Shown here: positions 48,790-53,732 of the stretch, piece by piece | Layout of the letters: each line of letters opens with the position of its first letter | How positions within the stretch are numbered: position 1 is the first letter of the stretch | NCBI GenBank assembly: GCA_902798825.1 | Contig: CADBYI010000009.1 | Span: 4,721-68,720 of the forward strand | DNA: 64,000 nt | Source of the DNA: an uncultured Eubacteriales bacterium | GTDB taxonomy: Bacteria; Bacillota; Clostridia; Christensenellales; CAG-138 | Reading direction: 5' to 3' | The notes under the pieces: generated by a model | Told to the model about the DNA's origin: nothing | Seen by the model: the letters and a program-made list of their open reading frames with translations, nothing else | Database searches by the model: none | Translations under genes and position numbers: made by a program

Positions 48790-49704
48790 ATGGCTAAACT
48801 GGTCGAGACCATCCCCAATTTCAGCTGCAGCCGCGAAAAGGATGAGGCTGCCTACAACGCCCTCGTCAAGACCGCCAACAGCGTCCCCGGCTGCACTCTC
48901 TTCGACGCCCAGACCGACGGCAACCACAACCGCTGCGTCTTCACCCTCATCGGCTCCCCCGAAGCCATCGAGGAGGTGGCCTTCCAGCTGACCAAGACCG
49001 CTTCCGAAGTCATCGACATGACCAAGCACCACGGCGAGCACAAGCGCATGGGCGCCACCGACGTGATCCCCTTCGTGCCCCAGATGGACGTCACCGTCCA
49101 GGAGTGCATCGAAATGAGCCGTCGCCTGGGTCAGCGGATCTGGGACGAGCTCAAAATCCCCTCCTTCCTCTATGAGGACAGCGCCACCCGGCCCGAGCGC
49201 CGGAATCTGGCCACCTGCCGCAAGGGCGAGTTCGAGGGCATGCCCGAGAAGCTCCTGCAGCCCGAGTGGGCCCCCGACTTCGGCGAGCGGAAGATCCATC
49301 CCACCGCCGGCATCACCGCCATCGGCGCCCGGATGCCCCTCATCGCCTTCAACTGCAATCTGGCTACCTCCGACGTGGAGATCGCCAAGAAGATCGCCAA
49401 GGCCATCCGCGGCTCCTCCGGCGGCTTCCGCAGCTGCAAGGCCATGGGCTTCATGCTGGAGGACAGGGGCATCGCCCAGGTGTCCATGAACATGGTGAAC
49501 TATGAGGACACGCCCCTCTTCCTGACCTATGAGATGATCAAGTCCCTGGCCGAGCGGTACGGCACCCGGGTCATCGAAAGCGAGATCGTGGGTCTCACCC
49601 CTGCCAAGGCCCTTATCGACTGCGCCGAATACTACCTGAAGGCCAAGGATTTCGACTGCAAGAACCAGGTGATGGAGTATCACCTGATCGACATGAACCA
49701 TTGA
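48790..49704 (+). CDS. Glutamate formimidoyltransferase
   Basis: ATG 48790 follows AGGAGGAA. MAKLVETIPNFSCSREKD (the PNFSEGR-type N-terminus), HHGEHKRMGATDVIPFVP. Length is 304 aa. Confidence 0.85.
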   Translation: MAKLVETIPNFSCSREKDEAAYNALVKTANSVPGCTLFDAQTDGNHNRCVFTLIGSPEAIEEVAFQLTKTASEVIDMTKHHGEHKRMGATDVIPFVPQMDVTVQECIEMSRRLGQRIWDELKIPSFLYEDSATRPERRNLATCRKGEFEGMPEKLLQPEWAPDFGERKIHPTAGITAIGARMPLIAFNCNLATSDVEIAKKIAKAIRGSSGGFRSCKAMGFMLEDRGIAQVSMNMVNYEDTPLFLTYEMIKSLAERYGTRVIESEIVGLTPAKALIDCAEYYLKAKDFDCKNQVMEYHLIDMNH

Positions 49705-49714
49705 AGGTGACGCC

Positions 49715-50347
49715 ATGAAGCTGTGTGATATGACCGTCACGGAATTCGTGAATACCGTGGCCTCCGACGCCCCCGCCCCCGGCGGCGGCTCCGTGGCCGC
49801 CCTGGCCGGCTCCATCGGCGCCGCCCTCACCGCCATGGTGGGGAATCTGACCCAGGGCCGGAAGAAGTACGCCGAATACGCCGCCTTCGCCGCCCAGGTG
49901 GAGACCAGGGGCAACCAGCTCAAGGCCCAGCTTTTGGACGTCATGGACCGGGACACGGAGGCGTTCCTGCTGGTCAGCAACGCCTTTGCCATGCCCAAGG
50001 CCACCGACGAGGAGAAGGCCGCCCGCTCCGCCGCCATCCAGGCCGGGCTCAAAGCCTGCACCAAGACCCCCATGGAGATGATGGAGCTGTGCGCGGACGC
50101 GGCCAAGCTGGCCGCCGATTTTGCGGACAACGGCTTTAACGACTCCTCCGCCAGCGATCTGGGTGTGGCGTTTTTGAGCCTGTCCGCCGCCATTCGGGGC
50201 GCCTGGCTGAACGTGCTCATCAACATCTCCTCCATCAAGGACCAAGCCTTCGCCGACGAGTACCGTCAAAAGGGCCAGGCCCTGCTGGACGCCACCCTCC
50301 CCCTGTGCGACGCAGGGTATGCCAAGGTGTTGGGGATGGTCCAATGA
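49715..50347 (+). CDS. Formimidoyl-THF cyclodeaminase-family protein
   Basis: FVNTVASDAPAPGGGSVAALAGSIG. It is a paralogue of 41542-42159 and sits adjacent to the formimidoyltransferase gene. Confidence 0.8.
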   Translation: MKLCDMTVTEFVNTVASDAPAPGGGSVAALAGSIGAALTAMVGNLTQGRKKYAEYAAFAAQVETRGNQLKAQLLDVMDRDTEAFLLVSNAFAMPKATDEEKAARSAAIQAGLKACTKTPMEMMELCADAAKLAADFADNGFNDSSASDLGVAFLSLSAAIRGAWLNVLINISSIKDQAFADEYRQKGQALLDATLPLCDAGYAKVLGMVQ

Positions 50348-50913
50348 CCCTGACCCACCTGACAGGCAAGGACTATACCACCACCCGCTGGTCCGGCGGC
50401 ACCACCACGGAGCTCCTCATTCGGCCCCGGGGCGCCGCATACGGCCAGCGGGCCTTTCTGTGCCGGATCAGCTCCGCCACGGTGGAGCTGGAGGAATCCA
50501 CCTTCACGGCCCTGCCGGACTACACCCGGCTCATCGCCACCCTGGAGGGGACCATCACCCTCGCCCACGACGGCGGCGAGCCCCTGACATTGGAGCCCTA
50601 TACGGTCCATACCTTCGACGGGGCCAGCGAAACGGTGTCCCACGGCCGATGCCGGGACTTCAATCTGATGCTCCGCAAGGGCCAGGCCACGGGGAGCCTC
50701 CGGGCCCTGCAGGTGACCGGGACCGTCGCCTGCCCCCTCTCCCCCGGCGCCCAAACGGCCCTGCTCTATTGCGCCGAGGGCCATTGCACCGCCGCAGGCG
50801 TCCGGCTTTCGCCCGGGGAAAGCCTGCTGCTGGAGGACGTGGACACGGACGCCCTCACATTGGAGGCCGCGCCCCAGGCCCGGCTCATGCTGGCCCAGGT
50901 CGGCCGTCTTTGA
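50344..50913 (+). CDS. hutD: HutD-family protein
   Basis: Starts at the internal ATG 50344, overlapping the upstream stop (ATGA). TTTRWSGGTTTELLIRP. Length is 189 aa. Confidence 0.65.
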   Translation: MTLTHLTGKDYTTTRWSGGTTTELLIRPRGAAYGQRAFLCRISSATVELEESTFTALPDYTRLIATLEGTITLAHDGGEPLTLEPYTVHTFDGASETVSHGRCRDFNLMLRKGQATGSLRALQVTGTVACPLSPGAQTALLYCAEGHCTAAGVRLSPGESLLLEDVDTDALTLEAAPQARLMLAQVGRL

Positions 50914-50929
50914 TCCCGTCATTCCTTCA

Positions 50930-51044
50930 GGAGCCCGCATCTGCGGGTTCCTTTTTGTTTTGCATGTTTTTCAATCCGTGGCAAAGCAAAGTAAGAAGAA
51001 AAACGAAAGGAAACGGAAGATGAAGCAAGCCGGCAGTGCCACGC
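50930..51044 (+). repeat. Direct repeat copy A (terminator hairpin, spoVAD 5' region and first 8 codons)
   Basis: About 90% identical to 52247-52362 by hand alignment. It includes ...gtaagaagaaaaacgaaaggaaacggaagATGAAGCAAGCCGGCAG(t/c)GCCACGC. The copy A ATG (51020) opens only a 29-codon ORF. Confidence 0.85.
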
Positions 51045-51232
51045 CCTTCCTCTACACCGGCTTCGGCCCCATCTCCTACCAAATGGAACGTGGCGCCCGT
51101 TACCTGTAAACTTCAGCTGAGATTTAGTCAAGTATGATTTACCAAATCGTACTTGACTATATTTTTATTGAGCGAATAGTCCTTGCCTCCGCAGGCGCTT
51201 TTGTGTACAATGGCAGGCAGGAGGAACAGCAT

Positions 51233-52189
51233 ATGGGGCGTGTTTCTAAAGAAAAGAAAAAACGGGTCTTCGAGATCATCCAAATCGGCAATAAGGAGGA
51301 TGGGCCCAGCCGGCTTTTCGATTATTTTATCGTGGCGGTGATCCTCTGCAACATCGCCGTCCTGTTTCTGGAGACGTTCGACGAGCTGGACGCATATCGG
51401 CCCCTCTTCAAGATGATAGAAAACGTGACCGTCGCCATCTTCTGCGCCGAGTACGCCCTTCGGATCTGGACGGCGGATCTGCTGTACCCGGAGGACACCC
51501 GGCCCCGGGCGGTGCGGCGGTTTTTGTTCTCCTTTGACGGGCTTGTGGACCTGCTCACCATTTTGCCGTTCTTCTTCCTGTCCGGGTTCGGGGCCTTCCG
51601 CATCCTTCGCGTCGCCCGCATCCTGCATCTGTTTCGCATCAACACACAGTACGATTCCTTCCACGTCATCACATCCGTCGTGAAGGAGAAGAAGAGCGCG
51701 ATCCTGTACTCGGTCTTTATCATTCTGGTGCTGGTGCTGGCCGCTTCGCTGAGCATGTACAGCGCGGAGCACGCGGCCCAGCCGGAGGTGTTCCGCAATG
51801 CGCTCACCGGCATCTGGTGGAGCGTTTCCACCGTGTTTACCGTGGGCTACGGGGACATCTACCCGGTGACCCTTCTGGGCCGGATCATGGGGGTGATCAT
51901 CACCTTCCTGGGCGTGGGCGCGGTGGCGATCCCCACCGGCATCCTCTCCGCCGGCTTTGTGGAGCATTACACGCGCCTGCAGCGCATGCAGGACGCGGAG
52001 GCGTACAAAAAGAGCACCGCCGCGATCCTGGTGGAGCCGAATTCCAGCTTTTCCCAGCGGACCATCAAAGAGCTGGAAACCATGCATCAGATCTGCACGA
52101 CGGCCCTGATCCGCGGGGATCTGGTGGTGATCCCGGAGGACAACGTGAAGGTCCAGCCGGGGGATGTGCTGATCTATATGAGGCTCTGA
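51233..52189 (+). CDS. Voltage-gated-type K+ channel with C-terminal RCK_C/TrkA_C domain
   Basis: ATG 51233 follows GGAGGAA. The S4-like segment is FRILRVARILHLFRI and the selectivity filter is TVGYGD. The C-terminus is ILVEPNSSFSQRTIKELE...VQPGDVLIYM. Confidence 0.85.
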   Translation: MGRVSKEKKKRVFEIIQIGNKEDGPSRLFDYFIVAVILCNIAVLFLETFDELDAYRPLFKMIENVTVAIFCAEYALRIWTADLLYPEDTRPRAVRRFLFSFDGLVDLLTILPFFFLSGFGAFRILRVARILHLFRINTQYDSFHVITSVVKEKKSAILYSVFIILVLVLAASLSMYSAEHAAQPEVFRNALTGIWWSVSTVFTVGYGDIYPVTLLGRIMGVIITFLGVGAVAIPTGILSAGFVEHYTRLQRMQDAEAYKKSTAAILVEPNSSFSQRTIKELETMHQICTTALIRGDLVVIPEDNVKVQPGDVLIYMRL

Positions 52190-52246
52190 CGGCCGCCCCG
52201 TCAGCAGATCGTTAACGAGGACCCAAATCCTTTTTGGAATACTTGG

Positions 52247-52362
52247 GGAGCCCGCAGTTGCTGCGGGCTTCCTTTTTGTTTCGCATAGTTTTTCGATCCC
52301 GTGGCAAAGTAAGAAGAAAAACGAAAGGAAACGGAAGATGAAGCAAGCCGGCAGCGCCACGC
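52247..52362 (+). repeat. Direct repeat copy B (functional spoVAD upstream region and start)
   Basis: See copy A. It contains a 9-bp terminator stem agcccgcag/ctgcgggct followed by a T-run, then the spoVAD RBS and ATG 52338. The offset between copies is 1318 bp. Confidence 0.85.
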
Positions 52363-53363
52363 TGCTTTTTGAGAACCGTCCCTATGTGCTCTCCGCCGCC
52401 AGCACGGCGGGCAAGGCCGAGGAAAAAGGGCCCTTCGGTCACGTCTTCGACGAGATCATGGAGGACGATCGGCTGGGGGAAAAGACCTTTGAGCTGGGGG
52501 AGCGAAAGATGCTGTTGAAGACCCTCCTCCGGGCCATGAAGCGGGTGGGCCTGTCCATGGAGGAGGCGGGCTGCCTGCTGGCCGGGGATTTGCTGAACCA
52601 GATCGTCACCGCCAGCTTCGCCGCCCGGGAGCTGGCCATCCCCTACCTGGGCCTCTACGGCGCCTGCTCCACCATGACGGAAGCGCTGCTTTTGGGGGCC
52701 GCCCTGGTGGACGGCGGCTACCGGGACAGGGCCCTGTGCGCCGCCTGCTCCCACTTCTCCACCGCCGAGCGCCAATACCGCTTTCCCCTGGAGATGGGCA
52801 CCACCGCCCCGCCTCACGCCCAGCGGACCGTCACCGGCGCCGGGGCCGTGCTCCTGGGCGCCGCGCCCCTCCCCCACACCGGCTTTCGCCACGTTCGCCT
52901 GGAGGCGGCCACGGTGGGCCGGGTCCTGGATTTGGGCATCACCGACGCCAACAACATGGGGGCGGCCATGGCCCCTGCCGCCTGCGACACCATAGAGCGG
53001 CATCTGACGGACAGGGGGATGAGCGAAGGGGCGTTCGATTGGATCGTCACCGGGGACCTGGGGGACTTTGGCAGCCGGATGCTGGCGGAGCTGTGGACGG
53101 AGGCGGGGCTCGATTTGAAGGGGCGGCACATGGACTGTGGCAGCATGATCTTCAGCCCCCAGCAGAAGTATAACTGCGGCGGCTCCGGCTGCGGCTGCAG
53201 CGCGGTGATGCTGGCCGGATACGTGCTGCCCCAGCTGGAAAAGGGGGCGGTGAAACGGGTGCTGTTTTTGTCCACAGGCGCCCTGATGAGCCCCCTCTCC
53301 GCCTGTCAGGGGGAGAGCATCCCGGGCATCGCCCACGCGGTGTCCCTGGTTTTTGAGGAGTGA
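52338..53363 (+). CDS. spoVAD: Stage V sporulation protein AD
   Basis: 341 aa, thiolase-like. FENRPYVLSAASTAGKAEEKGPFGHVFD and GLYGACST are typical of SpoVAD. Confidence 0.85.
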   Translation: MKQAGSATLLFENRPYVLSAASTAGKAEEKGPFGHVFDEIMEDDRLGEKTFELGERKMLLKTLLRAMKRVGLSMEEAGCLLAGDLLNQIVTASFAARELAIPYLGLYGACSTMTEALLLGAALVDGGYRDRALCAACSHFSTAERQYRFPLEMGTTAPPHAQRTVTGAGAVLLGAAPLPHTGFRHVRLEAATVGRVLDLGITDANNMGAAMAPAACDTIERHLTDRGMSEGAFDWIVTGDLGDFGSRMLAELWTEAGLDLKGRHMDCGSMIFSPQQKYNCGGSGCGCSAVMLAGYVLPQLEKGAVKRVLFLSTGALMSPLSACQGESIPGIAHAVSLVFEE

Positions 53364-53366
53364 AGT

Positions 53367-53732
53367 ATGGATTGGATCCTGTATGGAAAGGTGTTTTTGA
53401 TCGGCGGGCTGCTGTGCCTCTTTGGCCAGCTGGGCCTGTCCCTGACGAGGCTCACCACCGCCCGCATCCTGGTCGTCTATGTGACCGCCGGGGTCGTCCT
53501 GGGTGCCCTGGGCCTCTATGAGCCTTTGGTGGACTGGGCCGGCGCCGGCGCCACGGTGCCCCTGACCGGCTTTGGGTACGCCCTGTCTCAGGGAGCCAGA
53601 AAGGCCGTGGCGGAGCAGGGGCTGCTGGGGGCCTTCACCGGCGGCATCACCGCCACCGCCGGGGGCATCGCCGCCGCCATTTTGTTCGGCTATCTGTTCT
53701 CCCTGCTGGCCCGGCCCCAAACCAAGATGTGA
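53367..53732 (+). CDS. spoVAE: Stage V sporulation protein AE (SpoVAEB type)
   Basis: 121-aa membrane protein with VPLTGFGYALSQG and GGITATAGGIAAAI. It lies 3 nt after spoVAD. Confidence 0.8.
   Translation: MDWILYGKVFLIGGLLCLFGQLGLSLTRLTTARILVVYVTAGVVLGALGLYEPLVDWAGAGATVPLTGFGYALSQGARKAVAEQGLLGAFTGGITATAGGIAAAILFGYLFSLLARPQTKM

Follow-up and report, generated by a model that had tools for sequence, protein, structure and literature searches.

A 64,000-nucleotide (nt) stretch of DNA from an uncultured Eubacteriales bacterium of the CAG-138 lineage (assembly GCA_902798825.1, contig CADBYI010000009.1, positions 4,721 to 68,720; hereafter the window) carries a Kv-like K+ channel gene between hutD and spoVAD, bracketed by two imperfect direct repeats that each contain the 5′ end of spoVAD. 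We read the locus as a worn scar left by a mobile element and a duplication, a feature of a familiar kind. Our preferred reading, built from sequence comparisons and held with moderate confidence, is that the left repeat (copy A) is what erosion has left of the 5′ part of a spoVAD gene that a mobile element had disrupted and that the right repeat (copy B) belongs to the restored, working gene. Element integration and decay of the left copy have left direct traces in the sequence; the order of events, the duplication, and the excision route we infer.

A repeat search of the window found a 59-nt core (50986 to 51044 and 52304 to 52362) that is 98% identical between the two copies at an offset of 1318 nt, and two more in-register blocks stretch this core to the full repeats, 50925 to 51044 and 52242 to 52362. 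A blastn alignment of copies A and B spans 121 columns and shows 87.6% identity, 4 mismatches, and 5 gaps. One exact stretch of 46 nt has no third occurrence in the 64-kb window and did not arise in any of 100 shuffles. Both copies contain a terminator hairpin, a forespore-type promoter region, a purine-rich leader, a ribosome-binding site (RBS), and codons 1 to 8 of spoVAD, and both end in ATGAAGCAAGCCGGCAG[T/C]GCCACGC, which encodes MKQAGSAT. Copy B then continues into full-length spoVAD (PF07451). The bracketing repeats, with their offset, hairpins, leaders, RBSs, and shared spoVAD start, had been described in an earlier, sequence-only reading of the locus, which put their identity at about 90%, and were confirmed here. 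The hairpins with their T-runs fold at −19.3 kcal/mol in copy A (z −5.0 versus shuffles) and −25.0 kcal/mol in copy B (z −5.2), and both, like an AT-rich hairpin to the left of the channel gene, have the hairpin followed by a T-run that we used to recognize intrinsic terminators.

The repeats are 115 to 120 bp long and 88% identical, unlike a transposon target-site duplication, which we took to be about 2 to 14 bp, initially identical, abutting terminal inverted repeats, and accompanied by an encoded transposase. No terminal inverted repeats were found at the ends of the insert and no transposase at the locus in the window, the latter in agreement with the sequence-only reading. That reading had also proposed a duplication-generating event at the spoVAD promoter. 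Duplication of native DNA there stands, but a clean 115-bp target duplication does not, given that an element remnant is present.

Both copies hold the hutD terminator of the window's own species, which is distinct from the terminators of the sister species L127 and of L128. Native DNA was therefore duplicated, and an element-borne mimic of an attachment (att) site is excluded. Copy A carries states derived relative to L127, L128, and copy B of strain contig L174, namely, AGT in place of AGC, a CAAAG duplication, and spacer indels. Copy B has the sister-species state where the two copies differ (AGC, a single CA.AGTA box, and a CATAG motif), and copy A is thus the decaying copy. The number of sites that vary among strains is about 15 per 120 nt in copy A versus about 8 in copy B. 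Between the copies, identity is 98% in the leader and start but only about 80% in the left half, a difference that gene conversion could explain. At the −10 box of copy B, L174 has CACAGTA, as in L127 and L128, whereas the window has CAAAGTA, as in copy A, which suggests that gene conversion occasionally takes place between the right halves of the two copies.

The ancestral arrangement is seen in a sister species. Four related rumen metagenome-assembled genomes (MAGs; L127 to L130) were found by a HutD-based search; a SpoVAD search of species-representative genomes gave relatives of at most 60% identity among the matches listed, the closer ones coming via HutD. In L127 (RUG14803), hutD is followed by a 108-nt spacer and then by spoVAD, giving an empty site in a contig that is syntenic with the window at 76 to 93% nucleotide identity through hutU, lysR, two FTCD genes, and hutD on the left and spoVAD, spoVAE, radC, a GLUCM-like gene, and an acyltransferase gene on the right. 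Because hutD joins spoVAD directly in RUG14803, the channel arrangement is a derived insertion, and the synteny comparison bears out the earlier proposal that the channel segment was inserted between these two genes. Other relatives differ at the same place. L128 and L172 (the ruminal_MAG_432 type) have another gene in the hutD-spoVAD spacer, encoding a 272-amino-acid (aa) membrane protein with a C-terminal 4Fe-4S dicluster domain, with no flanking duplication (L128:4938-6020), and in L129 and L130 synteny breaks directly after hutD. Lineages with a 90%-identical SpoVAD have a cupin gene upstream, with or without two extra genes. In every lineage compared, homology starts at the −35 element of the spoVAD promoter, which makes the upstream edge of this promoter a recurrent breakpoint across the genus.

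The arrangement was present in every strain contig of the window's rumen species. These 14 contigs (97 to 99.9% identical to the window, from at least five assembly series and several studies) all share the order hutD, copy A, ORF29 (the small open reading frame [ORF] described below), channel, copy B, and spoVAD; all have the CAAAG duplication in copy A, and none is an empty-site allele. Since every strain has the arrangement, with diverged repeats and no empty allele, the arrangement is, as judged from these sequences, old and fixed in the species and not recent. The sequence-only reading had pictured a recent, excisable cassette, and diverged repeats shared by all contigs without an empty allele are part of what it had itself said would speak against this. 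The two repeats could in principle recombine and so remove the channel precisely, but no contig showed such a loss. The 90%-identity protein cluster of the channel has 43 members. A metagenome DNA scan for a shared 25-mer added no strains; it gave one chance match and a contig of the L128 type.

The spoVAD start in copy A opens an ORF of 29 codons, ORF29, which the sequence-only reading had called unrelated. It proved instead to be a chimera of the spoVAD start, a piece resembling internal spoVAD, and the conserved C-terminal end, PISYQxExGxRYL*, of a small ORF from a family of mobilizable elements. The ORF29 tail, PISYQMERGARYL*, agrees with the family C terminus, as represented by P0157, at 11 of 13 residues and with the small ORF of L186 at 37 of 43 nt (86%), with the stop codon at the same place. 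When ORF29 was used in tblastn against a set of seven loci, it found the small-ORF ends of five element loci, with E values from 6e-6 to 8e-5. A repeat search on L174 showed the resemblance of the tail to the small-ORF 3′ end. In about 170 loci, neither the left part of the insert (51045 to 51174) nor the stretch from the channel stop to copy B (52190 to 52246) had a DNA match, and the tail was recognized at the protein level only afterward. The tail is a recognizable remnant of a family-specific gene, which is what we required of a relic of a Tn4451-like integrative and mobilizable element (IME).

The middle of ORF29 points the same way. In the L174 haplotype, GCCACGCCCTTCCCCCACACCGGCTT matches GCCGCGCCCCTCCCCCACACCGGCTT (spoVAD codons 174 to 183) in frame at 24 of 26 nt, and spoVAD is its top match on both strands of the 64-kb window (score 20 versus 15 for the next). 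The join between codon 8 and codon 174 sits in a GCC(A/G)CGC microhomology. Among strains, ORF29 has four nonsynonymous changes and one synonymous change, a ratio that gives no sign of purifying selection, so although it spans 29 codons in all strain contigs, it looks like a relic and not like a gene. Its makeup of spoVAD pieces and a small-ORF end means that a mobile element was involved and suggests that copy A once reached well into spoVAD and abutted an element of a spoVAD-targeting family.

Members of this family occupy spoVAD in other strains of the window's species. In L173 to L176, an element cuts spoVAD after window position 52979 (codon 214) and encodes TnpV (PF14198), a 74- to 75-aa ORF, AT-rich cargo, a Mob_Pre relaxase, DUF6870, and a large serine recombinase. 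The insertion point follows the codons for AMAPA (spoVAD codon 214/215). The left junction, ...GC(C/G)CCTGCC followed by AGTGNTATACTAACACCAT, is common to all the elements, whose left end is always AGTGNTATACTAACACCAT. It is shared by two element variants in the window's species whose TnpV proteins are 74% identical to each other, by RUG472 (SpoVAD 92% identical over the 75 residues retrieved), and by the distant taxa L186, L187, L193, and L194, with SpoVAD identities of only about 60%. The gene nearest the junction in L186 is the small ORF. A profile search collected 27 members of the small-ORF family, with ORFs of 73 to 80 aa and a C terminus, ...DD[GDE][YLF]HPI[SA][YF]Q[MLI]xxGVRYL*, that is near-invariant in the 22 sequences read. 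The cargo beside tnpV varies between elements. The window holds an unoccupied attachment site, and tblastn with the L174 element proteins found no match to an intact Tn4451-like IME in it; lacking recombinase, TnpV, and relaxase, the window carries a scar and not an element. A look-up by SpoVAE returned element-free contigs only. We found no paper in the literature that links spoVAD to an integrase or an element insertion, spoVA genes being mentioned only as carried on islands (PMC6907783), and the family is probably undescribed.

The chimeric ORF29 and the presence of this family in spoVAD at codon 214/215 together make an eroded stump the most likely identity of copy A, and the following history would account for it. 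In the ancestor, hutD and its terminator would have been followed by a forespore-type promoter and spoVAD-spoVAE, an order that RUG14803 retains. A Tn4451-like element would have integrated at spoVAD codon 214/215, breaking the gene. Most likely, a segment that began shortly after hutD and ended within the element would then have been duplicated in tandem. Once the complete copy of the element had been removed by site-specific excision, an intact spoVAD would have been left on the right and a recombinase-less piece on the left; alternatively, an exchange with an intact allele, by homologous recombination on the right side and illegitimate recombination on the left, could have given the same product. 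By either route, a cell would briefly have had one intact and one disrupted spoVAD. The left copy would have eroded by a deletion of codons 9 to 173 at a GCCRCGC microhomology and by a second deletion that started near codon 185 and reached the terminal part of the element's small ORF, and its promoter spacer would have been altered by a 5-nt duplication and two 1-nt deletions. What remained, the ~120-bp repeat A with ORF29, would have become fixed in the species. The channel, with its own promoter, would lie in the stranded segment, either as cargo or as a later arrival; no source was found for the 60 nt that include the AT-rich hairpin or for the 40 nt after the channel.

In favor of copy A as a spoVAD stump, other strains of this species carry members of the element family at one and the same point of spoVAD. 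Several points weigh against it. Neither a longer spoVAD stump nor an element with the channel as cargo was present among the contigs fetched, and the orthologues of the channel in relatives have ordinary chromosomal surroundings that show no trace of the element. No TnpV separates the small-ORF relic from the channel, which calls for additional rearrangements. A deletion has to be supposed as well, because the spoVAD-like piece before the relic stops near codon 184 and not at att-site codon 214. In the window haplotype, the ORF29 middle piece differs at two bases and spoVAD ranks only second among its matches (14 versus 15), which leaves derivation of this piece from internal spoVAD suggestive, not proven. 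Finally, a simpler, general process of insertion with duplication may act at this locus, because a second insertion with a long flanking duplication and no element genes is found there in some strains.

This second, strain-specific insertion (2757 nt, 35% GC) is present in L177 to L179 after window position 52206 (L179:2844-5600), 17 nt past the channel stop, and is flanked by direct repeats, each a copy of the last 258 nt before the insertion point, which include the 3′ end of the channel gene (window 51949 to 52206). Its ORFs encode proteins of 246 aa (minus strand) and 541 aa (plus strand); neither belongs to a Pfam or PADLOC family, and the insertion contains no element genes. GCCAGCA stands at the left junction of chromosome and insert and again at the right end of the insertion. 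The redundant right copy, which encodes a 76-aa TrkA_C fragment, has four private substitutions, and the left copy has one. The locus has thus twice, independently, received an insertion that is flanked by a long duplication whose redundant copy is decaying, a pattern worth seeking elsewhere.

The second insertion also lends weight to the strongest rival explanation, a one-step illegitimate insertion, which we consider plausible but less likely than not. A fragment of about 1.2 kb (small-ORF end, hairpin, channel, and flank), derived from a locus with an element remnant, would have entered spoVAD at codon 8, with template switching or microhomology causing about 120 bp of the target to be copied again. 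The L177-L179 event has exactly this shape at the same locus, there is weak microhomology, CTTnnGGAGCCC, at the right junction of the channel insert, and this explanation requires the fewest steps. It leaves unexplained the in-frame 24/26-nt match of the ORF29 middle to spoVAD codons 174 to 183, and it makes a coincidence of the fact that the insert starts with a remnant of a spoVAD-specific element.

A Campbell-type single crossover with a circle carrying the channel and a copy of the ~120 bp upstream of spoVAD seems to us distinctly improbable. Integration of a circle would yield exactly the observed topology, the 46- to 59-nt identical core could have been the crossover zone, and the differences between copies A and B mirror conservation between species, the leader being conserved and the terminator and spacer diverged. 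Such a donor would, however, need the channel beside the species' own hutD terminator and spoVAD promoter, and none was seen; moreover, the internal spoVAD piece is left unexplained, and the private changes of copy A look like decay and not like donor alleles.

We consider it very improbable that the locus is a decayed island resembling a cis-mobilizable element (CIME), with the repeats as attL and attR at the spoVAD 5′ end and the integrase lost. Elements at gene ends are flanked by repeats of that end, and decayed ones can keep their att sites (PMC5704250), but both repeats here include the species-specific terminator of the upstream gene, which largely refutes this idea. The repeats are also 115 to 120 bp long instead of the usual 8 to 60 bp (PMC5704250), there is no integrase, the only element trace comes from a serine-recombinase family, with a 2-bp crossover (PMC5704250), and the family members found sit at codon 214/215 and not at codon 8. 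An assembly artefact or a chance similarity is scarcely credible: the one point in its favor is that the data are short-read metagenome assemblies, but the arrangement recurs in 14 further contigs from independent metagenome assemblies, making 15 with the same structure and with strain-specific substitutions in both copies, and no shuffle reproduced the 46-nt exact repeat.

The sequence-only reading had suggested that the channel might now be driven by a sporulation promoter copy, and the promoters at the locus speak against this. In B. subtilis, spoVA is a forespore operon, and the sigma-G/F consensus is GnATA at −35 and CAxxxTA at −10. Copy B fits a forespore-type promoter by sequence, and we take it to belong to the sigma-G/F class on the strength of that B. 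subtilis consensus. The motif G[CT]ATA-17/18-CA[ACG]AGTA is kept in L127, L128, L174, L196, L197, and L198, whatever the upstream neighbor, and the functional copies in six lineages all have spacers of 17 to 18 nt. Copy A departs from this spacing, its spacer having been lengthened by a 5-nt CAAAG tandem duplication together with two 1-nt deletions; most strains have CAAAGCA as the copy A −10 box, and measured to the first CAAAGCA the spacer would be 15 nt. We regard the copy A promoter as probably inactive. Its 20-nt spacer, the strong hairpin that follows, and the channel's own conserved promoter (TTGCCT-17-TACAAT) make sporulation-driven expression of the channel unlikely. A channel outside sporulation control is useful to know for annotation but not surprising.

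As we read the locus today, from its motifs and predicted folds, the copy A hairpin would serve as the terminator of the hut operon, and the copy A promoter and ORF29 would be relics. The AT-rich hairpin, likely a terminator or insulator between ORF29 and the channel, would stop read-through; no homologue of it was found in any fetched locus. The channel would be read from its own sigma-A-type promoter, with an RBS as at its other loci, and its transcription would end at the copy B hairpin, after which the copy B promoter would drive spoVAD-spoVAE in the forespore. Rfam gave only sub-threshold, miRNA-like matches at the AT-rich hairpin, which we regard as spurious.

The channel gene is predicted to encode a Kv-type K+ channel with six transmembrane (6TM) segments, its translation having the expected domains, S4 repeat, and selectivity filter. 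It matches Ion_trans (PF00520, 1.5e-29) and Ion_trans_2 (PF07885, 8.7e-14), exceeds the cut-off for TrkA_C barely (27.9 bits versus 27), and contains RILRVARILHLFR and a TVGYGD filter; its best solved relatives are Kv7, Kv4, Kv2, and KvAP (E 1e-15 to 1e-21, residues 31 to 268). Gene callers often pick the ATG at 51134, which falls in the loop of the AT-rich hairpin and would make the channel 351 aa long. The orthologues and the RBS AGGAGGAA favor the ATG at 51233, which gives 318 aa.

Orthologues with 87 to 89% nucleotide identity lie at other loci in four related MAGs (L082 to L085). Homology runs from about 60 nt 5′ of the ATG, with TTGCC(C/T)-17-TACAAT included, to about 10 to 16 nt past the stop, and the flanks differ between MAGs (pckA in one, a tRNA gene in another). 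The gene and its ~60-nt promoter region thus appear as a discrete unit of about 1.03 kb, with a different upstream neighbor in all four MAGs; L082 and L084 have a short downstream stretch in common. No repeats or recombinase adjoin the channel in L082 to L085, and none of seven other orthologue loci has flanking repeats, so the duplication is specific to the window locus. Two of the channel-bearing MAGs (ruminal_MAG_432 and RGIG5880) also hold a syntenic hut locus. Identity of the channel to its relatives, 87 to 89%, equals that of the syntenic core genes, which makes it an accessory gene native to the clade and not, as the notion of a captured cassette might imply, foreign to it. We rejected distant horizontal acquisition on this ground, the lower GC content of the channel (0.59) being found in the orthologues as well. 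We also rejected the channel as general cargo of the elements, there being no TnpV or small-ORF match near any of 45 channel loci; one serine recombinase 4.6 kb from the channel in L087 is not a convincing link.

Elements in which a serine recombinase interrupts a sporulation gene at a defined site are familiar from skin (sigK), SPbeta (spsM), and gin (gerE), and the spoVAD elements resemble them in this. The genes that skin, SPbeta, and gin interrupt are mother-cell genes; the genome of that cell is discarded, and excision is not inherited. By contrast, spoVA is expressed in the forespore in B. subtilis, and in the window the site is unoccupied. The channel resembles KvAP, KvLm, and the RCK-bearing Kch in its 6TM voltage sensor and pore, with an S4 arginine at every third position, and in its TVGYGD filter. 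Unlike the RCK-bearing Kch, it has a short TrkA_C only and no full RCK domain (TrkA_N plus TrkA_C).

Tn4451 and Tn4453 of Clostridia encode the large serine recombinase TnpX, TnpV, and the MobV/Pre-type relaxase TnpZ, with cargo next to tnpV. The sister-strain elements are like Tn4451 in having TnpV, a Mob_Pre relaxase, a large serine recombinase, and variable cargo beside tnpV. All that survives of such an element in the window is roughly the final 14 codons of the small ORF found with tnpV. For Tn4451, target specificity is described as low and the crossover as 2 bp (PMC5704250), whereas the present family is always at one spoVAD position. For the stage at which both gene copies would have coexisted, there is a parallel in S. 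pneumoniae, in which intact and inactivated copies of a needed gene were held together after tandem duplication (Johnston et al. 2013; PMC3784515). As in those merodiploids, intact and disrupted copies stand in direct orientation and function is kept; those duplications were 100 to 900 kb, bordered by insertion-sequence repeats, unstable, and seen in the laboratory, whereas here the duplicated unit, by the route proposed, would have shrunk to the present ~120 bp, which are fixed in the species.

If copy A is a spoVAD stump, a tidy, long target duplication may be the worn-down remnant of a far larger rearrangement. A further step, that stranded element cargo, the K+ channel included, became a permanent chromosomal gene by targeting, escape through duplication and excision, and selection trimming the repeat until the insert was stable, the element itself being a widespread, reversible knock-out of sporulation that blocks spore maturation in rumen and gut Clostridia, is doubtful in our view; if true, the knock-out would act on a forespore gene and follow a logic other than that of skin or SPbeta. 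The element family, which occurs in several Clostridia lineages, is a by-product of this work more notable than the channel locus itself. Should the elements be active, uptake of dipicolinic acid, and hence spore heat resistance, would vary between strains and possibly be reversible in rumen and gut communities.

Table 1. Coordinates of the features discussed (window positions unless a locus is named)
Feature	Position	Strand	Basis
Repeat copy A (relic): hutD terminator, decayed forespore-type promoter, leader, RBS, spoVAD codons 1 to 8	50925..51044	+	
Copy A terminator hairpin and T-run, predicted now to end the hut operon	50929..50952	+	Folding
Copy A promoter relic, GCATG-20 nt-CAAAGTA	50962..50993	+	Read from sequence
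ORF29, chimeric 29-codon relic ORF; nt 1 to 25 are the spoVAD start	51020..51109	+	
ORF29 middle, resembling spoVAD codons 174 to 184	~51038-51068	+	Source segment 52860..52890
ORF29 end, 3′ end of IME small ORF	51066-51109	+	C-terminus match
AT-rich 16-pair hairpin (inverted repeat 51125-51159) and T-run	51125..51169	+	−24.4 kcal/mol, z −7.4
Predicted sigma-70-type promoter of the channel, TTGCCT-17-TACAAT	51183..51211	+	Conserved with orthologues in other contexts
Kv-like 6TM K+ channel with C-terminal TrkA_C (RCK_C), 318 aa	51233..52189	+	Pfam, orthologues
Repeat copy B (functional): terminator predicted now to end the channel gene, spoVAD promoter, leader, RBS, 8 codons	52242..52362	+	
Copy B spoVAD promoter, GCATA-17-CAAAGTA	52283..52311	+	Read from sequence
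Intact spoVAD, 341 aa	52338..53363	+	PF07451, E 2.4e-131
Internal spoVAD segment, codons 174 to 184, counterpart of ORF29 middle	52860..52890	+	Repeat search
Unoccupied element attachment site in spoVAD, ...GCCCCTGCC joined to GCCTGCGAC	52971..52988	+	Insertion point between 52979 and 52980
spoVAE(B)-like gene (SpoVAC/SpoVAEB family), second of the spoVA pair	53367..53732	+	PF03862, E 2.1e-32
hutD, last gene of the hut/FTCD cluster, left neighbor	50344..50913	+	PF05962, E 2.3e-34; syntenic in L127-L130
Element insertions	L174:6749-10957; L173:3759-4594; L186:4800-5700; L193-L195		
Channel in relatives	L082:6001-6954; L083:6001-6954; L084:5377-6330; L085:1134-2087		

Three smaller observations concern the neighborhood. 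spoVAD and spoVAE form a two-gene unit, with spoVAC not immediately upstream, both in the window (52338 to 53732) and in the relatives L127, L128, L196, and L198. The usual order in Clostridia is spoVAC-spoVAD-spoVAE, and spoVAC may lie elsewhere in the genome. Among the lineages with a cupin gene upstream of spoVAD, a pair of additional genes on the minus strand, PDDEXK_4 and a nitroreductase gene, is inserted in one genome just upstream of the spoVAD promoter (L196:5068-6868 versus L198:6349-6538). Lastly, the assembly L081/L190, otherwise 99.8 to 99.95% identical, has about 100 extra nt at the 3′ end of the formiminotransferase (FTCD_N) gene (L081:3201-3302 versus window 49639 to 49693). 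The alignment overlaps there and no gene is called; a pseudogene, a small duplication, and an artefact of scaffolding are all candidate explanations.

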